Position numbers and translations under genes: made by a program. 45,805 nucleotides of DNA from Escherichia virus fEg-Eco19, in sequence record NC_073314.1. One strand, written 5' to 3'. Every line of letters begins with the position of its first letter. The first letter of the stretch is position 1. The notes below the pieces were generated by a model. The model ran no database searches. It was not told where the DNA came from and was given only the letters and a program-made list of their open reading frames with translations. This document shows, in pieces, positions 10,070 to 44,757 of the stretch.

Positions 10070-10090
10070 AAGGCCCCGAAAGGGGCCTTA
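10070..10090. terminator. bidirectional hairpin terminator
   Basis: AAGGCCCC-gaaa-GGGGCCTT between convergent ORFs 9605..10066(+) and 10094..10615(-). Confidence 0.5.
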
Positions 10091-10093
10091 GCT

Positions 10094-10615
10094 TTATTTA
10101 AATCGCGCAGGCATTAACACCATAAAGGCCGTGTTTGAAAATAGTATTTTGCATCCTCTGGTTTGGTCCTGGAAATCGAAACGAGCAATTTCATTTTTGT
10201 ATGCCTTAGAAATCTTGTACGCGTCTGCCAAATAGCGCAGAGTGAACCCTATACTATCGACAACACCCGGTGTGATGTGCGCCACGCGTCTCCAGTCAGG
10301 AAAGTTTCCTTCTACAACATCTACCGGAAGTGTACATATAAGCGCACGATTATCGTCATAGAAAGATACACTGCCGTTGTCGTGGTCTACCTCTGCGTAG
10401 TTAAATTTAGAAGGCTCTCTCCCTTTGATGTTTATGAGAGTCCCTTTCTCAACGTTGGTCTTCACATTGTCGCAGAACAATCTATGACCGTCCGTAGACA
10501 CTATCAATCCTTCAGGGTCTATGTAAAAAGCGTTCAAATAGTGGCGAACATCATTTTTAGCCCTGCATATTTTCGCCCCTACATACGCAGGGAAAGTAAT
10601 TACTGTAGTAACCAT
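10094..10615 (-). CDS. hypothetical protein, opposite-strand accessory gene in head module
   Basis: 173-aa ORF with AGGAGA RBS; visibly AT-richer than flanking head genes; own promoter. Confidence 0.55.
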   Translation of the reverse strand: MVTTVITFPAYVGAKICRAKNDVRHYLNAFYIDPEGLIVSTDGHRLFCDNVKTNVEKGTLINIKGREPSKFNYAEVDHDNGSVSFYDDNRALICTLPVDVVEGNFPDWRRVAHITPGVVDSIGFTLRYLADAYKISKAYKNEIARFDFQDQTRGCKILFSNTAFMVLMPARFK

Positions 10616-10640
10616 TTCTCATCTCCTGTTTAAGTTAACT

Positions 10641-10669
10641 GAATAGTACCCTATTATATTGGGGTGTGC
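10641..10669 (-). promoter_or_regulatory. sigma70-like promoter (TTGCAC-N17-TACTAT class) with AATAG-N4-CTATT palindrome
   Basis: Reverse complement reads TTGCACaccccaatataatagggTACTAT; ~30 nt upstream of the ATG at 10615. Confidence 0.45.
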
Positions 10670-10723
10670 AAACTATTTGTTTACGTATTCCAGTTATTCC
10701 ACTCAATTGTAAATGTTGGAATA

Positions 10724-10766
10724 AACTATTCGAATAGTTGACTTTTCACTGAAAATATGATAAGCT
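10724..10766 (+). promoter_or_regulatory. 16-bp perfect palindrome AACTATTCGAATAGTT abutting a TTGACT-N17-TAAGCT promoter
   Basis: Read directly from sequence. Confidence 0.35.
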
Positions 10767-10772
10767 CCACCT

Positions 10773-10973
10773 GAGCTTGTGAAGTATGAACAAGCGACCG
10801 CGGCGCGGGCAGGTAACGGAGCGGGACGTAAGTCCTGAGTGTAGTTACGCTGACGCGTTCGGAAGGGCCATACTCTATTGCTTGTGTAAAAAGTAACTGG
10901 TTTACTGAGATTACGCCGTTTCTATGTTTAAATGATAAGGACTAGCGCCCCGCTTTAAGGCGGGGCTTTACTT
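10773..10973 (+). ncRNA. candidate small non-coding RNA (promoter to terminator, no ORF over 36 codons)
   Basis: GC-rich ~200 nt between promoter at ~10738-10766 and terminator at ~10947-10973. Confidence 0.2.
10947..10973 (+). terminator. rho-independent terminator
   Basis: GCCCCGC-tttaag-GCGGGGC followed by TTTACTT. Confidence 0.5.
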
Positions 10974-10990
10974 ATCGAGAAAGGGGAAAC

Positions 10991-11350
10991 ATGAATCTTA
11001 AAGCAACTGTCGTAGCCGGAGCATGTTTCGTCGTCCTAGCCTACGCACACGGCATCTATCAATACCGCAGCGGCTGGGGTGAAGGCCGTGCTAATCTCGT
11101 TTCGCAGCAGCAGCAGAAAGCACAGGCCGCGCTGGTGAAGAAAACACAACGGCAGCAGCAGGATGAATCAAAGGCCGCCGCCGCTGACAACGAAGGCAAA
11201 ACGAAATCAGAGGTGATAACCCGTGAAGTCGTTAAGTACATAAGTCGACCCAATAAGGTATCTTGCAAGTTTGACGCTGATAGAGTTAGAATCAAATACG
11301 ACGCTGTCAACAACGCAAACGGGATACCAGGGTATGACGATATTAAATGA
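10991..11350 (+). CDS. putative i-spanin (Rz-like)
   Basis: N-terminal TM helix, then Q/K/A-rich helical region, conserved Cys near C-terminus; 119 aa. Confidence 0.4.
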   Translation: MNLKATVVAGACFVVLAYAHGIYQYRSGWGEGRANLVSQQQQKAQAALVKKTQRQQQDESKAAAADNEGKTKSEVITREVVKYISRPNKVSCKFDADRVRIKYDAVNNANGIPGYDDIK

Positions 11351-11840
11351 TACTTTCTACTACGATGATGGGGTTCTTTACTGGCGTAGCAGTAAGCTCG
11401 CCAATAAAACAGGAACCCCAGCAGGGTGCCTAACTACGCCGAAAGGCGCAAAACGGCGACAGACGATAGAGGTTAGATGGATGGGGAAGGCGTTTCAAGC
11501 GCACCGTCTTATATGGGAACTTTTCAATGGGCCAATTCCGACGCCATATGAGATAGACCACATTGACGGGAACCCACTCAACAATCGTATAGAAAATCTA
11601 AGGCTTGCTACTAGCCAAGAGAACAGTCGTAACGTTGGTCTCACGTCCGCTAATAGTACAGGGTTCAAAGGGGTTTCCAGGTTCCCAAACGGCAGATTCC
11701 GTGCGGACATAAGAATCCGCAACAAGACCAAATACCTCGGTCAGTTCGACTCCCCCGTCGACGCACACAAGGCCTACGTGCAAGCTGCCAAGAAGCTACA
11801 TGGAGATTTTTTCAAATGCGACTGCCAATATTGCTCTTAG
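11334..11840 (+). CDS. HNH homing endonuclease with AP2-like domain
   Basis: AHRLIWELFNG...EIDHIDGNPLNNRIENLRLATSQENSRN, then GFKGVSRF...AYVQAAKKLHGDF; paralogous to 31390..31875 and 33289..33786. Confidence 0.75.
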   Translation: MTILNDTFYYDDGVLYWRSSKLANKTGTPAGCLTTPKGAKRRQTIEVRWMGKAFQAHRLIWELFNGPIPTPYEIDHIDGNPLNNRIENLRLATSQENSRNVGLTSANSTGFKGVSRFPNGRFRADIRIRNKTKYLGQFDSPVDAHKAYVQAAKKLHGDFFKCDCQYCS

Positions 11841-12055
11841 TTATATGGTGCTACGGGTGCTCAAGTCCCGCGCCGTCGTCAATGCCAACTCCGTCCCCGG
11901 ATACGACGATGATGCAGCCGCCGTGCAAACTGGCACCGCCAAGTAGCGACGCTGACGAGGATTTAGCTATCGACGTTCAGAACGCCGAATGTGTACGGCA
12001 ACTGAGACTGAAAGTGTTCATGTTGCAGGATTACGTGAGGAATATTCTGGAATAG
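11816..12055 (+). CDS. putative o-spanin (Rz1-like lipoprotein)
   Basis: MRLPILLLVIWCYGC signal with lipobox-like YGC, then Pro-rich PAPSSMPTPSPDTTMMQPP; overlaps HNH 3' end. Confidence 0.4.
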   Translation: MRLPILLLVIWCYGCSSPAPSSMPTPSPDTTMMQPPCKLAPPSSDADEDLAIDVQNAECVRQLRLKVFMLQDYVRNILE

Positions 12056-18558: not shown

Positions 18559-19191
18559 ATGTTCTTGTATGAAGAATTTGAAAAGATACCAGCATCAAAA
18601 CGGGCGGTATCATGCCGTAAAACAATCTGCGGAGTCGGTGTCAACGATGCAGATTTCACCACCAGTATTTTCAACGGCAAAAAGTCTGTTAACCACCCGG
18701 TGTACGATATTTGGTGTGCGATGATATTCAGGTGCTACCATGGGTCCGTTAAGCATCCAACATACTCAGGAGTGGTAGTGTGTGAAGACTGGCTGTATTT
18801 CTCCAACTACTTTAAATGGTACAAAGATAACTACGTAGAGGGTTGGCATGTTGACAAAGATTTGCTTACGGATTCTAAAGAATACTCACCGGATACCTGT
18901 ATATTTGTCCCAAGAGTTTTAAACAACTTTCTAACCGACAGCGCAGCGGCTAGAGGTGACCTACCGATAGGCCTTACTTATAGGAAAACAAACGGCAAGA
19001 TTCGATGCAGGGTTAATAATCCGCTAACCGGGGTGCGCGAAAACTTAGGCGATTTTACCGATTTGGATGAAGCCATCAAGGCCAGAACGCTGCGGAAGTT
19101 AGAGATAGCCGGAGAACTTAAGCCACTTATGGATTCCATAGACGGGAGAATCTATCCGAGGGCCGTTTCTGTAATTAAGGCACAACGATAA
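18559..19191 (+). CDS. HNH endonuclease (YGGRGI/EGW-DKD-YSP family)
   Basis: ICGVGVNDADF...IWCAMIFRCY...YVEGWHVDKD...YSPDTCIFVP; paralog of 24270..24920; AT-rich. Confidence 0.55.
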   Translation: MFLYEEFEKIPASKRAVSCRKTICGVGVNDADFTTSIFNGKKSVNHPVYDIWCAMIFRCYHGSVKHPTYSGVVVCEDWLYFSNYFKWYKDNYVEGWHVDKDLLTDSKEYSPDTCIFVPRVLNNFLTDSAAARGDLPIGLTYRKTNGKIRCRVNNPLTGVRENLGDFTDLDEAIKARTLRKLEIAGELKPLMDSIDGRIYPRAVSVIKAQR

Positions 19192-19196
19192 AACTA

Positions 19197-19220
19197 AGGC
19201 CCCTTTCGGGGCCTTTTTCT
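19197..19220. terminator. bidirectional hairpin terminator
   Basis: AGGCCCC-tttc-GGGGCCT with T-run; sits between convergent genes. Confidence 0.5.
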
Positions 19221-19450
19221 TACTCATCAATGTTACTCCGGTATTCCCGTAACTTCTCCAGGCTTTCAATTGCTTCCGCCAAGTCGGTTCCCGTGTCTTT
19301 GTGCCCGCGAAGGCCCATACACAATAGCTTCTTTAATGCGTGCTGTAGCGCCGGGTCGCGGATGTCGAAGGCGCGTAGCACATCATAAACGTCTACTGTC
19401 ATAGTGCTGCCGTGGGTGTTTGTCATTGTGCGGTTGTATTTATTTGTCAC
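19220..19450 (-). CDS. small hypothetical protein (DUF3310-like pattern)
   Basis: QHALKKLLCMGLRGHKD...DLAEAIESLEKL resembles a common small phage protein family; last gene of a 4-gene minus-strand operon. Confidence 0.4.
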   Translation of the reverse strand: MTNKYNRTMTNTHGSTMTVDVYDVLRAFDIRDPALQHALKKLLCMGLRGHKDTGTDLAEAIESLEKLREYRSNIDE

Positions 19451-19640
19451 TGTTAACTCTCTTAAATCTGGCTATGCCTGACTCGTTAATGTTGCCTATT
19501 TCAAAGAAGCTGCGATATTTAGGCGAATACATTCTTACGTCGCCGTTCTCTAGGGTGACCCCTTCATATACAGCGCCTACTTCGAATCCATTTTTCTCCG
19601 CGTACGGACTCACATCGGTGCATTCATACATATCTTTCAT
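19440..19640 (-). CDS. small hypothetical protein
   Basis: 66-aa ORF overlapping both neighbours. Confidence 0.4.
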   Translation of the reverse strand: MKDMYECTDVSPYAEKNGFEVGAVYEGVTLENGDVRMYSPKYRSFFEIGNINESGIARFKRVNSDK

Positions 19641-20767
19641 CCCAGCATCTCCGGTGAAATAGTTAAACGTGCGACCTCGCCATATTCGGCACTATAGGTA
19701 ATTACATTTGCACTACGGCCTGACATCCATCCACCGCGCGAGGCGTAGGCGTCTTTAGCCGCCAGGGTGCGGTGTTGCTCAACAATCATGTTACGGCTTT
19801 CCACAATCTTCTGATGGTGGAGGTGGCCTATGTGGGCGTAGCTGTAAACGCTTTCGCCAAATGCTTTGCGGAACTTGGCAATCATAACCGGTTCGATAGC
19901 GTCGAATCGTGCCTTATGCCCGTGGTGAAAGAACAGCGTCGTTTTGCCGTGTTGCACCATCTTGTAAACATCTGGCGACGTATCGACGAACACACGAGGC
20001 TCATTGTCGTACAGCGTACTAAACATCTCAGCTAACCAAATCATTCCGCTTTCGTCGTGGTTTCCTTGCACGATAAGCAAGCGAACATTTTTATGCTTAA
20101 CCAGCGCCATACCGACAACACGGCGGACCATACGAATCATGTAGCGGACAAGTTTCTGATAGCGAGTGTCCGCATCAAGAACGTGACCACTTGCGGGGGT
20201 AACCGCATCCAGACTATCGAAGTGCGCAAGGTCGCCCAGCAGGTTAATAACTCCTGTTCCCGCGTCCGGTGCTTTCTGGAATGCCGCGTCGAACCATCGA
20301 GAGAACAGGTCTTCTGCAATCTTCATGTCCCAGTCGTCGCCGCTCTCGTCGGCCCAGGCCAGCATACCGAGATGGAAATCAGATACAGTGTAAAGATTAA
20401 GTAGTTTATCGTCACGTTTGGCGCGAACGGCTTTAACAGGCGCAACCGGCGTAATCTCTGACTTCATGCCCTCGATTACAGCTTTCATCAACTCGACCTG
20501 ACGTTCTGCGTCAGTGTCGGTCTTAACCCATTGCAGCTTAGTGTTGCCGAACTCGTCCACAAGTGACGATGTGCCTTTAATCTTGTAGCCATCCGGCACA
20601 AGATGGCTAACGTCACGACCGTGACCTACGCCTTTCTTCGCCAGCTTCGCTTTACGGATACGAATAACTCGGTCTGAGATGCCGTATTTACGGGATATGT
20701 CGATAATCTTTGTTCCGGCGTTCAATTCTTCCTGTAACTGTTCGTCGGTTATTTTCTTCTGGGCCAT
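19637..20767 (-). CDS. HTH-domain protein fused to calcineurin-like metallophosphoesterase
   Basis: N-terminal IIDISRKYGISDRVIRIRKAKL (HTH-like); then phosphoesterase motifs DFHLG, GDLAHFD, GNHDE, HHGH, GHLHH; GAGGAAG RBS. Confidence 0.6.
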   Translation of the reverse strand: MAQKKITDEQLQEELNAGTKIIDISRKYGISDRVIRIRKAKLAKKGVGHGRDVSHLVPDGYKIKGTSSLVDEFGNTKLQWVKTDTDAERQVELMKAVIEGMKSEITPVAPVKAVRAKRDDKLLNLYTVSDFHLGMLAWADESGDDWDMKIAEDLFSRWFDAAFQKAPDAGTGVINLLGDLAHFDSLDAVTPASGHVLDADTRYQKLVRYMIRMVRRVVGMALVKHKNVRLLIVQGNHDESGMIWLAEMFSTLYDNEPRVFVDTSPDVYKMVQHGKTTLFFHHGHKARFDAIEPVMIAKFRKAFGESVYSYAHIGHLHHQKIVESRNMIVEQHRTLAAKDAYASRGGWMSGRSANVITYSAEYGEVARLTISPEMLG

Positions 20768-20805
20768 GCTTACTTCCTCGTGTTTAGGATTTGTCCTATA
20801 CTAGC

Positions 20806-20997
20806 TCACTTCTCGTTAACATTCGAGTTGCACGCCCAGATTAAAATAAATACCCACGGCAGCAGAACCCAACCGAGAAACAGGTTAGCCATGAATATCG
20901 CTAATTTAGCTTTATGGCTGCGCATATGCGCCACGAGAAATGGGATAAAATAAACTAAAACGATAATGATTAAGAAGAACATAGTAATACCTGTCAT
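20806..20997 (-). CDS. small membrane protein (2 TM)
   Basis: 63 aa, two hydrophobic helices; first gene downstream of promoter at ~21039-21067. Confidence 0.5.
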   Translation of the reverse strand: MTGITMFFLIIIVLVYFIPFLVAHMRSHKAKLAIFMANLFLGWVLLPWVFILIWACNSNVNEK

Positions 20998-21038
20998 GGG
21001 GTAGCTCCTGTTTGAGTTAACATTGTTGGTGTAAGTGA

Positions 21039-21067
21039 ATAGTACCCTATTATATTGGGGTGTGCAA
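21039..21067 (-). promoter_or_regulatory. sigma70-like promoter (TTGCAC-N17-TACTAT class) with AATAG-N4-CTATT palindrome
   Basis: Near-identical to the 10641-10669 element (shared run GAATAGTACCCTATTATATTGGGGTGTGCAA). Confidence 0.45.
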
Positions 21068-34494: not shown

Positions 34495-37400
34495 TTACTT
34501 AGCATAGCGTTTCAACTCCGCACCTTCCGCTACAAGAGGGAAGCCTTCTGCCCACTCCGGCAACGCGCACATTAATTTCTCCAGTTCAGCCACCGTGTAC
34601 TCTGGGGTGTCCGGAGTTTCACACACCAGTTCATCGTGTACCGAAAGCACGATAGGATACCCACCACCCTCAACGTTAATCATCGCATATGCCAGTAAAT
34701 CACGGCACAGCGCCTGAACAATGTTTTCACAGGCTTTGCCGCCGTGTGTGTATAGAGTTGTCCATTGGCGGGTTAACTGGTTTTCACCCTGATACTTGAT
34801 TCGCACATTCGTGTTCATCCGTCCGTCTTCGTCTGTTTCCTTTGTCACGCTAACGCCGATTCCCGGATACGAGAGGATACGGCCCGACGGCAACTCCATA
34901 CACAACCACCAACCAGGAACCTTCCTGCCGGATGAATCAAATTCTACAGTACGCCATATGCGGATAGCCCTTTCCCCATTCCTGCGCAAGTGTGCCCCCG
35001 CCCAAAATTCACGACCGGGATTACGAACAGCAGCTAAAATTCCGTCTTTAAGGTCGCGCCAGAACGCTACTGTTTCCGGGTGTGACTCGCGCCACATACG
35101 CTTGATTGCGTCACATGTGCGCCACACTTTCTTATCAAGAATATACGATGGTCGGTCATCCTTTTCACCCGGATGCGGTGGTCGCTTGGCTTCCTGAATA
35201 CGCGCCCACTCATACCCACGCGCGGTAGCAGCCCAGATGTGGTCGGGGAAAGTCCCGTCCATTGTTTTTGCCATCTCAATAAGGTCAAGACCTAAGTTTT
35301 TAGCGAACGTAACGAATGCTCCGACGCCGCCTTCGTATCCGAGTCCAAGCTCGCAGTTATGCGCCACAAGAAAGCCAGAGTCGGAAGCGATAAGAAAACG
35401 GTTGCCGTCTTCCACATCAATCAGGTCGTACACTGGCTCGCAGTAGGTTAATTTCCCGTTCAAGCTCAGCAATGCGGGCAACGGCTGCATCATACTTTCG
35501 TTGAAGCTCAGGTATTCGCCGTCTGTTACGGCAGTTTTCAGAACGGCTGACAAACCGAATGTTTCCAGGTTCGTAGTTACCGTCTGTGTCGATTCTATCC
35601 ATTTCGAGGTTCGGGTCATCCCAGCCTTCCAGAGTTTGAACATATCTAAGAAAAGACCTTTTATCAGTCCTCCACTGGTCAAATACCGTGATGCCTCTTG
35701 CCCCATAGTTTTTATAACCCTTATCCCTGGGGCTTGTTGTCCGCGTGATTGCCGCGGACAGCCGGTTGAGTAATCGCGTTCTGTGCACATCATCCGGCAT
35801 TGCGTCTTCGTAGCAGAAATATTGTTTACGATATTTTTTTGTTGCTTCAAGGGCGCAACGGTTGCATTGAGTGGTTTTACCTGCTCTGACATTGTCATAA
35901 TAGACCCGCCCCGGCATCTCTCCGCAATCACATTGGACGAGTAGTTGTCTTTGGCCTTGTCGTTTTGGTAACTCGCGCAGGATAACCAGGCGTCCATACC
36001 TATCTCCAGGGCGCGGTCCATCATATATTTGTTTGAAACGAGTTGCTTTGCCTGCTTCCAGGAATGCGTCAAGATTTTGTGGTCTTCGGTCATTAGCACC
36101 CCGTCCACATTTATCACCGGTTTCCACCCCATAAGGTGCGCGCCTTTTGTATTCACCCATTTTTCGCCACTCCATACTTTATCTGTCGATGTGACCGCCA
36201 TAATATCCTTAAATCCGCCATAGGTCAAAACTTGGGTATGGCGGTGAAGGCAGGCTTTACCAATCTGGCGTAAGTCTTTGCGTTCTTTCTTAATGTAATC
36301 CGGCTCCATACCAAACATCTTACCCGCGGTTACGCAGTAAATATCCAACCCGGCGCGGAACGTATCGAGCGCGGTTTCTTCACCAGCCAGCCACGCAAGC
36401 CCTCGGCCTTCAACGTTAGAGTAATCGGCAACAACAAACTTATGTCCGGCTTCCGGTATGATGCAGCTACGAACGGTCGATGCCGTTAGCTTGGCCACAT
36501 CGAAACGGCGATGGGCGCGACCCTTAAGTAACGCCGAAATGCCTTTATCCAGCTCATCATCGTGATAGTAACCGCGTGCCAGGTTCTGCGGCTGGAAGCC
36601 TTTACCAGCCCATCGCAGAGTACGTTTTGCCCCACCGTACTGCAAGCAACCACGACGGCGGTCGTCGGACGAGCGGCCTAACAGCAATGGGTTATATTTC
36701 GTTGACGCGGTAGACGCGGCCCCGAGGCGCATTTCGATAATCGCGCGAGCGTCGTCTGGTAAATCATCATCCGAAAGCAGGTCATTAAGCGTCGACTTCT
36801 GCGCATTGTGGATGCGGTGCGCTGGGGCAAGCTCACGCAGAATCGGCAGAAAGTCCTTACCAGTAAGCGAGCCGCCGTATTTGCGTTGGGCTTCTTCCTG
36901 CAACCGTGCCTTGTGCTTCTCCACAGCTTCAATCGCGGCTTCTGCCAGGGCAACGTCAACCTTAAACCCGCGGTCGTTGATTAACTGGTCCAGTTCCAGT
37001 ACACGGTCTTCGAACTCGGAGTTACCCCACCGCGGCAGCTTATGGAAGACTTCACGCATTGCGGTGATGTCACTCACGGCGTATTTGATGAACAGTACCC
37101 ACTCGTCCGGGTGTGTTTCAGCGGTGTAGCGACGGATTTTGTAGTTCTTCGGCGTCGGTTTAGAGAAACGCTGAATCAGCGCCTTGCCTCGTTTGTCTTT
37201 CGCGTTGTCTGCTGACACGCCCAGCACTTCGCACAACGCATCGAGGGAACCCGGCAGCGCGTGACGAAACGCCCAAATCATCGTATCAATGGTGTTGCCT
37301 ACAGGAATATCAAAGTCCCAGCAGTGTTTCATGATGAGCCTATCGAACATTGAGCCGTTGTGCCATACCATCTTGATGCGACTGTTCGGCTTAACCAGAC

Positions 37401-37593
37401 GGCGTAGAGCGCGGTGTAAATCACCCGGCATGTCGCTGCCGTCGGTGCAATCCCATACCTGCACAGGCTCGTCGTCAAAGGCATAGGTACAGATGAGCAC
37501 TTCGGTTGACGGGTGTTCGGCGTAAGCGTAGGAGCCGACTTTCTTCAAATCGGCTTCGGAGAATGTTTCAAAGTCCAGGTATAAGTAGCTCAT
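34495..37593 (-). CDS. family A DNA polymerase with 3'-5' exonuclease domain, interrupted by an intein in motif B
   Basis: Exo motif LYLDFETFS, motif A VVADYSNVEGRGLAWLAGEE, motif B split as RQIGKA | intein | CELGLGYEGG; likely start is the internal ATG (MSYLYLDFET) with AAGGA RBS, track ORF starts at an upstream TTG. Confidence 0.85.
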   Translation of the reverse strand: MSYLYLDFETFSEADLKKVGSYAYAEHPSTEVLICTYAFDDEPVQVWDCTDGSDMPGDLHRALRRLVKPNSRIKMVWHNGSMFDRLIMKHCWDFDIPVGNTIDTMIWAFRHALPGSLDALCEVLGVSADNAKDKRGKALIQRFSKPTPKNYKIRRYTAETHPDEWVLFIKYAVSDITAMREVFHKLPRWGNSEFEDRVLELDQLINDRGFKVDVALAEAAIEAVEKHKARLQEEAQRKYGGSLTGKDFLPILRELAPAHRIHNAQKSTLNDLLSDDDLPDDARAIIEMRLGAASTASTKYNPLLLGRSSDDRRRGCLQYGGAKRTLRWAGKGFQPQNLARGYYHDDELDKGISALLKGRAHRRFDVAKLTASTVRSCIIPEAGHKFVVADYSNVEGRGLAWLAGEETALDTFRAGLDIYCVTAGKMFGMEPDYIKKERKDLRQIGKACLHRHTQVLTYGGFKDIMAVTSTDKVWSGEKWVNTKGAHLMGWKPVINVDGVLMTEDHKILTHSWKQAKQLVSNKYMMDRALEIGMDAWLSCASYQNDKAKDNYSSNVIAERCRGGSIMTMSEQVKPLNATVAPLKQQKNIVNNISATKTQCRMMCTERDYSTGCPRQSRGQQAPGIRVIKTMGQEASRYLTSGGLIKGLFLDMFKLWKAGMTRTSKWIESTQTVTTNLETFGLSAVLKTAVTDGEYLSFNESMMQPLPALLSLNGKLTYCEPVYDLIDVEDGNRFLIASDSGFLVAHNCELGLGYEGGVGAFVTFAKNLGLDLIEMAKTMDGTFPDHIWAATARGYEWARIQEAKRPPHPGEKDDRPSYILDKKVWRTCDAIKRMWRESHPETVAFWRDLKDGILAAVRNPGREFWAGAHLRRNGERAIRIWRTVEFDSSGRKVPGWWLCMELPSGRILSYPGIGVSVTKETDEDGRMNTNVRIKYQGENQLTRQWTTLYTHGGKACENIVQALCRDLLAYAMINVEGGGYPIVLSVHDELVCETPDTPEYTVAELEKLMCALPEWAEGFPLVAEGAELKRYAK
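35356..36252 (-). mobile_element. intein (299 codons) in DNA polymerase motif B
   Basis: Hint blocks in polymerase frame: N-terminal CLHRHT, block B LMTEDHKILT, blocks F/G VYDLIDVEDGNRFLIASDSGFLVAHN followed by Cys. Confidence 0.7.
35417..36175 (-). CDS. HNH endonuclease ORF inside the intein, in a different frame from the polymerase
   Basis: 252-codon ORF offset from polymerase frame (37647-36175=1472, not a multiple of 3); GYKNYGARGITVFDQW...EGW...DRIDTDGNYEPGNIRFVSRSENCRNRRR; shares EGW...DKD...YSP motif with 18559..19191 and 24270..24920. Confidence 0.55.
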   Translation of the reverse strand: MEWRKMGEYKRRAPYGVETGDKCGRGANDRRPQNLDAFLEAGKATRFKQIYDGPRPGDRYGRLVILRELPKRQGQRQLLVQCDCGEMPGRVYYDNVRAGKTTQCNRCALEATKKYRKQYFCYEDAMPDDVHRTRLLNRLSAAITRTTSPRDKGYKNYGARGITVFDQWRTDKRSFLRYVQTLEGWDDPNLEMDRIDTDGNYEPGNIRFVSRSENCRNRRRIPELQRKYDAAVARIAELEREINLLRASVRPD

Positions 37594-37745
37594 TTCTTTT
37601 TCCTTAAATCCAGTGCCTTCGTTTCGCTTAATCTTATTTTCATACAATCACGACAAATCCACACATGTCTGTACCCGGCGCGGTACTCATCCGCGTACCA
37701 CGGAAGTGGCTTCATGTATCGGTATACGTGCTTGCAGAAAAACAT
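37590..37745 (-). CDS. small Cys-rich protein (51 aa), coupled to polymerase start
   Basis: Translated by eye (MFFCKHVYRYMKPLPWYADEYRAGYRHVWICRDCMKIRL...); stop overlaps polymerase ATG as ATGA. Confidence 0.25.
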   Translation of the reverse strand: MFFCKHVYRYMKPLPWYADEYRAGYRHVWICRDCMKIRLSETKALDLRKKK

Positions 37746-44694: not shown

Positions 44695-44723
44695 TTGCAC
44701 ACCCCAACATAATAGGATACTAT
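44695..44723 (+). promoter_or_regulatory. sigma70-like promoter (TTGCAC-N17-TACTAT class) with AATAG-N4-CTATT palindrome
   Basis: TTGCACaccccaacataataggaTACTAT, ~35 nt upstream of ORF start. Confidence 0.45.
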
Positions 44724-44757
44724 TCACTTATCGAAACGAGACAGATGAGTGAGGGTT

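Follow-up and report, generated by a model that had tools for sequence, protein, structure and literature searches.

A mobile cassette in the head module of Escherichia virus fEg-Eco19 predicted to encode a ring-less homologue of the bacterial beta sliding clamp

A single-gene cassette on the opposite strand of the head module

We analysed a 45,805-nucleotide (nt) stretch of Escherichia virus fEg-Eco19 (NC_073314.1; hereafter the window), focusing on a minus-strand open reading frame (ORF) whose product is, close to certainly, a shortened relative of DnaN, the beta sliding clamp of bacteria, without the parts for closing into a ring (hereafter the "mini-clamp"). The 45.8-kb window is, in essence, the whole genome of an E. 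coli siphophage that is Kagunavirus-like (Guernseyvirinae) and looks virulent. The 3 kb surrounding the mini-clamp gene were 93.6% identical to phage vB_VIPECOMC04 and matched 206 phage records. In the annotated relative Ivi, the genes are ordered terminase, portal, Mu-F/SPP1-gp7-type minor capsid protein (with a match to Pfam Phage_Mu_F), Ig-like decoration protein, mini-clamp on the opposite strand, spanins, scaffold and major capsid protein. The mini-clamp ORF is the sole long ORF at its locus. An earlier note on this DNA, made from the sequence alone, had described it as a single-gene unit on the minus strand between the head morphogenesis and the scaffold/capsid genes. We found a self-contained unit of predicted promoter, ribosome-binding site (RBS), ORF and terminator, and the opposite-strand placement held; what separates the mini-clamp from the scaffold/capsid genes, however, is not head genes but an HNH endonuclease ORF and the pair of spanin genes.

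The left boundary of the cassette is a G+C-rich hairpin located between the stop codon of the Hoc-like gene (10066) and that of the mini-clamp gene, 4 nt from the end of the latter, and the same hairpin is kept in relatives whose slot is empty and in phage Bas70 (Table 1). The G+C content (GC) of the mini-clamp gene was 43.1%, compared with 52.4–52.5% in the two upstream head genes, in agreement with the impression that it is AT-richer than its neighbours. Among the 45 genes of the window, however, its GC gave a z score of only −1.46, and several other small genes were lower (37–42%); the difference is real but modest, the gene is no outlier within its genome, and "compositionally foreign", as the earlier note put it, was an overstatement.

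The 32-nt block upstream of the RBS was assigned as a promoter, an assignment inferred from position and consensus only; a simple sigma-70 scan made no call at 10640–10671. The block recurs without mismatch upstream of the minus-strand cassette at 19220–20997, and none of 100 shuffles gave such a match. A further 17-nt block of the 5′ untranslated region (UTR) and RBS is common to the mini-clamp gene and the gene at 20997, with one mismatch. The near-identity of the two promoters had been recognized over about 30 nt; the correspondence turned out to be stronger than that, and a third copy, with two mismatches, had escaped notice. All three copies are conserved in Ivi. The perfect TATAAT within an imperfect palindrome suggests that the block may also serve as an operator for a phage regulator.

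Table 1 Positions of the features discussed in the text
Feature	Position	Strand	Description
Bidirectional intrinsic-terminator hairpin	10070–10089	both	AAGGCCCCGAAAGGGGCCTT; serves the Hoc-like gene (+) and the mini-clamp gene (−); left cassette boundary
Inserted cassette	~10090–10686	−	Extent relative to the empty-site relatives K1ind1, FSL SP-101 and ER18
Mini-clamp ORF	10094–10615	−	173 amino acids (aa), 19.6 kDa, ATG start; homologous to domain II of the beta sliding clamp and to the C-terminal half of its domain III
Ribosome-binding site	10623–10627	−	AGGAG, 7 nt 5′ of the ATG (10613–10615); from direct sequence reading and alignment of the three promoter regions
Promoter/operator block (predicted)	10640–10671	−	32 nt, TTGCACACCCCAATATAATAGGGTACTATTCA; −35 TTGCAC, 17 nt, −10 TACTAT; internal TATAAT in an imperfect palindrome
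Promoter block, copy 2	21036–21067	−	32/32 nt identical; predicted to drive the cassette at 19220–20997
Promoter block, copy 3	44695–44726	+	2 mismatches; faces the plus-strand small-ORF cluster beginning at 44749
Co-promoter cassette	19220–20997	−	Imm-like superinfection-immunity membrane protein (63 aa), SbcD/Mre11-type metallophosphoesterase nuclease (376 aa), two small ORFs
Ultra-conserved non-coding element	10735–10975	+	241 nt; just upstream of the cassette promoter, on the opposite strand
HNH homing-endonuclease ORF	11271–11840	+	189 aa, phrog_99; inserted in the spanin locus
o-spanin, conserved part	11816–12055		Resumes after the HNH gene
Second HNH endonuclease ORF	18559–19191	+	210 aa, phrog_953; 44% GC
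Family-A DNA polymerase ORF	34495–37647	−	1050 aa
57–58-aa ORFs of other phages	L003 1979–2152; L008 3056–3229; L012 3295–3471		DS8, pYD38-A, 6991

Comparison with relatives revealed that this segment of about 600 bp, comprising promoter, RBS and ORF, is a genuine, literal insertion. In K1ind1 (Kagunavirus) and in the Salmonella jerseyviruses FSL SP-101 and ER18 the slot is empty, and because the hairpin of these phages runs straight into the same downstream sequence, the bounds of the insertion can be placed as in Table 1. Bas70 contains the same promoter/RBS and terminator flanks, the promoter block being identical, around an unrelated 67-aa gene (L002 2597–2856). This Bas70 ORF matched no family, and we ruled it out as a mini-clamp remnant for want of similarity. 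In the Kagunavirus Sciku, the cassette (L017 1400–2060) occupies another slot, between the portal and minor capsid genes, with a variant promoter, the same UTR and a hairpin of its own. Because the mini-clamp DNA is 99.0% identical to that of Ivi, compared with 85.9% for the adjacent Ig-like gene and 89.5% for the minor capsid gene, the alignment indicates recent lateral exchange.

The earlier note had proposed to look at presence and absence among related genomes, and the distribution was indeed patchy: a close copy (at least 60% identity) occurred in only about 25 of about 206 related Guernseyvirinae records. The cassette thus fits the classical notion of a moron: Guernseyvirinae have acquired, lost and exchanged it, and they carry it in different places. 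It has a predicted promoter and a terminator of its own around a gene foreign to the surrounding operon (conserved block, RBS, hairpin, opposite strand), and among collinear relatives it is present, absent (K1ind1, FSL SP-101, ER18), replaced (Bas70) or moved (Sciku), together with an atypical composition (GC 43% vs 52%). The annotators of Sodalis phage SO-1 had labelled the homologue in that phage a "possible moron". The locus provides a clean case of cassette exchange at fixed promoter/terminator boundaries in a virulent siphophage lineage.

The encoded protein, its family and its docking pocket

No fold or motif had been assigned to the product in the earlier note, which suggested structure prediction as a check. 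Sequence search, profile alignment and modelling all pointed clearly to a fragment of the beta sliding clamp, which is also how deposited relatives are annotated. In a phmmer search of PDB sequences, with 1JQJ and 1JQL among the matches, residues 16–116 aligned with positions 144–252 of E. coli beta and residues 117–171 with positions 312–365. The profile of a 133-member family aligned with E. coli DnaN at 137–259 (E = 6e-31) and 315–365 (E = 1.4e-5), skipping 260–314. AlphaFold2 yielded a confident, compact clamp fold (predicted local distance difference test score, pLDDT, 92.4; predicted template modelling score 0.89) whose elements run b-a-b-b-b / b-b-b-b / a-b-b-b (b, strand; a, helix). 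Pfam DNA_pol3_beta_2 was matched by 114 of the 133 family members, and no match was obtained to the Pfam models of the N- and C-terminal beta domains. The protein belongs to PHROG 3007, whose profile it matched over its full length (residues 13–172, E = 5e-35) and whose members are about 165–240 aa long with the same domain boundaries.

DnaN proper consists of three tandem domains (Pfam DNA_pol3_beta, _beta_2 and _beta_3; about 366 aa) and closes into a head-to-tail dimer ring, of which domain I and the N-terminal half of domain III carry the interface halves. A clamp loader places this ring on primed DNA, where it confers processivity. The mini-clamp, with 173 aa, has only 1.5 domains, and domain I and the segment equivalent to beta ~260–314 are absent from its sequence. 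Because both dimer-interface elements are missing, the mini-clamp, as judged from its sequence, cannot form the canonical head-to-tail dimeric ring. The 169–173-aa subfamily to which it belongs also has no DNA-facing helix homologous to beta ~197–210.

A genuine ring clamp could conceivably be assembled from four subunits, which by arithmetic (1.5 domains × 4 = 6) would supply the 12 beta-alpha-beta-beta-beta units of the beta dimer and encircle DNA; the exposed half-domain would need a cover, and databases do call these proteins sliding clamps. We consider this very unlikely. The segments that are missing (domain I and domain III residues ~260–314) are the natural interfaces, the second module of the AlphaFold2 model has no inner helix, the counterpart of beta 197–210 is deleted in this subfamily, and a ring would thus be short of a third of its DNA-facing helices; self-pairing of half-domains would break the head-to-tail polarity, and no clamp loader is encoded (none is annotated in the close relative Ivi). 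Another idea, that the gene is a decaying, captured dnaN fragment without function, could draw on the former annotation of Bcep781 gp15 as a "DNA Pol III b subunit fragment", but it is effectively refuted by conservation. The ratio of nonsynonymous to synonymous substitution rates was 0.14–0.19 for informative kagunavirus pairs, reflecting purifying selection, and thousands of diverged full-length members share the same boundaries; the confident, compact model and the gene's own conserved promoter (predicted), RBS and terminator speak against decay as well.

The family is large. An exhaustive hidden Markov model search retrieved 16,559 cluster representatives at E ≤ 1e-3, of which 3,729 still matched at E ≤ 1e-10; all of the best 150 were 72–242 aa long. 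Similar short clamp-fold proteins were present in BFVD from Serratia, Pantoea, Burkholderia, Rhodococcus, Gordonia, Bacillus and Xanthomonas phages; tblastn located mini-clamps in 228 phage records, and 34 homologues were word-indexed. Plasmids gave only 12 weak matches, mostly to plasmid dnaN. Identity of the window protein was 88–98% to kagunavirus members and 29–43% to those of SO-1, Dhillonvirus and Bcep781.

Homologues occupied three classes of genomic context. In the first, the mini-clamp is a lone opposite-strand gene in head/tail operons, as in this phage, SE1, the Dhillonvirus phages SO-1, TheodorHerzl and WF5505, the Burkholderia myovirus Bcep781, Shewanella 1/41 and Proteus Isfahan. 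The insertion view of the earlier note was to be given up if the gene proved conserved and syntenic in all relatives with a known structural role; recurrence of the lone gene in structural modules of phages as distant as Dhillonvirus, Bcep781, Shewanella 1/41 and Proteus Isfahan goes some way in that direction, but the gene is not found in all relatives and has no known structural role. In the second class it lies 3′ of a ParB-like gene (DS8, pYD38-A and Serratia phage Eta, the last with the order SSB, ParB-like, mini-clamp, helicase, where SSB is the single-stranded DNA-binding protein). The third is a lambdoid replication module, in which Hafnia phage yong1 carries the mini-clamp between cII and O/P-like genes. 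On a metagenomic contig, the mini-clamp gene stood beside genes for a DnaA_C-domain protein, a primase-helicase and PolA.

Two side observations concern other family members. A ParB/KorB-HTH protein and a conserved, apparently translationally coupled 57–58-aa ORF (65–68% identical; Table 1) come before the mini-clamp in DS8, pYD38-A and Klebsiella phage 6991. We considered the 57-aa ORF as the missing half-domain acting in trans and dropped the idea, as it looks helical by eye, matched no Pfam family, clamp or other, and is absent from the window. Longer members (200–216 aa; P0028, P0029 and P0032–P0034 of alignment A1) carry a C-terminal tail of 25–35 residues after the MPxR motif. This tail ends in AA (SQAA, SVAA) in 5 of 7 long sequences, reminiscent of ssrA-type degradation tags, and the kagunavirus protein has no such tail.

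Database labels for the family are heterogeneous, ranging over "DNA polymerase III sliding clamp", "beta clamp domain protein", "DNA Pol III b subunit fragment" and "RusA-like Holliday junction resolvase". The last, which is the label of PHROG 3007 and has been spread by pharokka-type pipelines into many recent phage records, finds no support here: Pfam and NCBIfam scans detected no RusA family, no resolvase occurred among the PDB matches, and the predicted fold is that of a clamp. We found no dedicated Pfam or NCBIfam family for mini-clamps. The family has been known since Bcep781 and is not a new sequence family; in the literature we found only descriptive genome papers that name the gene a sliding clamp (e.g. 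PMC9825357) and no functional characterization, and the searchable literature yielded neither recognition nor a functional test of the pocket-only, ring-incompetent nature of the family. For annotation, we suggest that the RusA-like label be corrected and that "DNA polymerase III sliding clamp" be tempered, as it implies a ring and processivity that the sequence does not support.

In beta, domain II and the C-terminal half of domain III jointly form the pocket for clamp-binding motifs of the QL[SD]LF type, and these are the parts that the mini-clamp retains. We measured conservation across 133 diverse family members with 21–64% identity to the query, mapping the C-terminal part from the phmmer and profile alignments. 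The most conserved positions corresponded to beta P242, G174, R152, Y154, M362, T172, P363, L155, R365, G157, H175, D173, Y323 and R246, several of them surface arginines without an obvious structural role. In structures of beta with peptides of Pol II, III, IV and V, V247, L177, V360, P242 and M362 form the hydrophobic pocket, and G174, M362, P363, R152, R246 and H175 are hydrogen-bonding or contacting residues (PMC3716654). Because the top-conserved positions coincide with these crystallographic pocket and contact residues, the alignments argue that the family keeps both pocket-building pieces and that the pocket lining is under the strongest constraint.

Possible roles of the mini-clamp

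Because the phage encodes the family-A polymerase, the helicase and the SSB of a replisome of its own, and because the mini-clamp is missing from most close relatives, we favour an accessory role in host manipulation, and a core replisome role is less likely. The earlier note had suggested a host-interaction or exclusion gene; the fold, together with the replication-module contexts in other phages, points to DNA replication or repair partners rather than to that category. The reading we prefer, to which as a whole we assign a probability of roughly 45%, is that the mini-clamp is an accessory, host-manipulating clamp mimic that offers its pocket as a decoy. The protein would be made together with the products of the Imm-like/nuclease and small-ORF genes, probably early; the early firing of the shared promoter is inferred from the company that the promoter keeps. 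Its free-standing docking pocket would then bind the clamp-binding motifs of host replication and repair proteins away from DNA, with Pol III alpha, the clamp-loader subunit delta, Hda, Pol II/IV/V and MutS/L, among others, as candidate partners. Such a competitive sink would draw off the partners of the host clamp and impair host replication or repair. In the work behind 1JQJ and 1JQL, monomeric beta reportedly binds the delta "wrench" far better than does dimeric beta. Over-expression of full-length clamp homologues from phages proved toxic in mycobacteria, an effect that the authors ascribe to disturbance of the host replisome (PMC9339283, PMC11373665); by analogy, ectopic clamp-like proteins may be able to disturb a host replisome.

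Several points weigh against the decoy. When the E. coli clamp-binding Pol II peptide TLMTGQLGLF (positions 241–250 of the fusion) was joined to the mini-clamp through flexible GS linkers in AlphaFold2, it did not dock; a scrambled control (positions 201–210) was likewise undocked, the scrambled and Pol II blocks had pLDDT values of 31 and 35, and the test, having no positive control, is weak. One side of the pocket, which in beta comes from the N-terminal half of domain III around F278, is missing, and affinity or specificity may differ from those of beta. The pocket residues could also be kept partly for folding of the junction between domains II and III. Finally, for polymerase-less phages with a mini-clamp, such as the lambdoid yong1 and Eta, an indiscriminate sink for Pol III and the clamp loader would be self-defeating.

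This last point favours, in those phages, an adaptor or non-ring processivity factor, in which the pocket holds a partner (the phage polymerase or nuclease, or the host Pol III or clamp loader) and a second surface touches DNA or a phage protein, in the manner of UL42. Such a role fits the replication-module contexts of polymerase-less phages better than does a sink, and the gene lies inside replication modules in yong1, Eta and the metagenomic contig. Basic residues on the two remaining DNA-facing helices are conserved (K134, 89% K/R; K137, 68%; K20, 59%), and the window protein has an isoelectric point of 8.3. Its predicted promoter is also common with that of the Mre11/DP1-like nuclease, and archaeal DP1 interacts with PCNA (PMC11795197). 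Against this, the gene is dispensable, being absent from most Guernseyvirinae with the same polymerase and nuclease, in which the slot is empty or otherwise filled; the family median isoelectric point is 6.5, and no single neighbouring gene is conserved family-wide. Moreover, a regular-expression scan of 30 phage ORFs for clamp-binding motifs gave 4–5 matches, which is at chance level, none of them terminal, conserved or convincing; this result counts against an adaptor for phage proteins and is neutral with respect to host targets. For the phage of the window, we regard an adaptor as unlikely.

The promoter shared with an Imm-like superinfection-immunity gene suggests another kind of decoy, directed at exclusion or counter-defence, which would titrate clamp-dependent factors of superinfecting phages or host nucleases and defence proteins recruited through the clamp. 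The patchy, moron-like and laterally exchanged distribution is typical of conflict genes, other phages need clamps for late transcription (T4 gp45, Mu MuC-beta; PMC2988020, PMC12867686), and an interaction between RecBCD and the clamp has been reported (bioRxiv 10.1101/2025.08.20.671105). The evidence is, however, purely circumstantial: no PADLOC model matched, in a library that covers defence rather than counter-defence proteins, and the gene is rare on plasmids. We also know of no defence system that works through the clamp pocket. We therefore consider exclusion or counter-defence distinctly unlikely as the function of the gene.

Returning to the preferred reading of a host-directed pocket decoy, its extension to the whole family is more doubtful. 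Pocket-only mini-clamps would then be widespread phage host-takeover factors, soluble mimics of the docking site that titrate delta, Pol III alpha, Hda, translesion polymerases, MutS/L and possibly RecBCD, and that are carried as plug-in cassettes between slots of structural operons; we offer this only tentatively. If true, host replication and repair would be rewired in thousands of phage lineages. Bacterial polymerases reach DNA by way of the beta-clamp pocket, as do the clamp loader, Hda and mismatch-repair proteins; this hub is also an antibiotic target, and its imitation, rather than its inhibition, would be a possible new principle of takeover. A stably folded 19-kDa protein of this kind would also be a minimal scaffold for studying the pocket and screening its ligands.

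Neighbouring features and comparison with known systems

On the other side of the cassette promoter lies an ultra-conserved non-coding element (Table 1) that is mostly unannotated. Identity was at least 95% in 177 of 179 Guernseyvirinae records, which cover phages of both E. coli and Salmonella. It is more conserved than any neighbouring gene, the flanking coding DNA being 60–95% identical. The element starts with an extended −10 promoter (TTGACT at 10738, a 17-nt spacer, and TG-n-TAAGCT ending at 10766), continues for a putatively transcribed stretch of about 200 nt (10774–10970) and ends in a terminator hairpin (10947–10966) immediately 5′ of the spanin, scaffold and capsid genes. No Rfam match was found, the variation was too low for covariation analysis, with no informative substitutions, and the single-sequence fold had a z score of −1.7. 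The element is a candidate late-operon leader, antitermination RNA or small RNA, and may be comparable to the lambda pR′-tR′ late leader or a put-type antitermination RNA.

Further features were seen elsewhere in the window. The HNH homing-endonuclease ORF in the spanin locus is part of an insertion of about 630 bp common only with the closest relative, vB_VIPECOMC04. The o-spanin of Ivi overlaps the end of the i-spanin; in the window, the i-spanin has 119 aa instead of 128, with a different C-terminus, and the conserved part of the o-spanin resumes after the HNH gene. The second HNH endonuclease ORF separates the tail tube gene from the Imm/nuclease cassette of the minus strand. In the window, the ORF for the family-A DNA polymerase encodes 1050 aa, compared with 746 aa in Ivi, and its match to Pfam DNA_pol_A is short, which suggests an in-frame insertion of about 300 aa, possibly an intein. 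Relatives carry inteins in other genes, e.g. the "intein-containing capsid morphogenesis protein" of Snoke.

Among known systems, the closest to the mini-clamp are the other phage proteins of PHROG 3007 (Bcep781 gp15, Sodalis phage SO-1 gp7, Sciku gp004 and Ivi gp25), which are its own family, have the same size and boundaries, often occupy a lone opposite-strand position and differ in nothing essential. With DnaN (E. coli beta; PF00712/PF02767/PF02768) it shares, by sequence, domain II and the C-terminal half of domain III, including the pocket-lining motifs RYYLN, TDGHRL, FPD[YW]RRV, FNxxY and MPxR. In contrast to the three-domain DnaN, the mini-clamp has 1.5 domains, is phage-encoded, accessory and mobile, and has one lumen helix deleted. 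The herpesvirus accessory proteins, UL42 as a monomer and UL44, PF-8 and BMRF1 as open dimers, have two full PCNA-like domains, are essential and have the C-terminus of the viral polymerase as their partner; beyond the fold, they have no sequence relationship to the mini-clamp.

As a genetic unit, the cassette resembles the morons of lambdoid and other tailed phages in having its own predicted promoter and terminator within a late operon, in being AT-richer and in being present, absent or replaced among close relatives. Classical morons, however, belong to temperate phages and are expressed from the prophage, whereas the phage of the window looks virulent; the mini-clamp promoter is also one of three copies of a phage-wide block. 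In its proposed target, the mini-clamp would be comparable to phage proteins directed against the host clamp, such as Twort Gp168, which binds S. aureus beta (PDB 7EVP): both would address the host clamp network, with interference with host replication as the likely outcome. Gp168 binds the host clamp itself, whereas the mini-clamp would mimic the pocket and bind the partners of the clamp.

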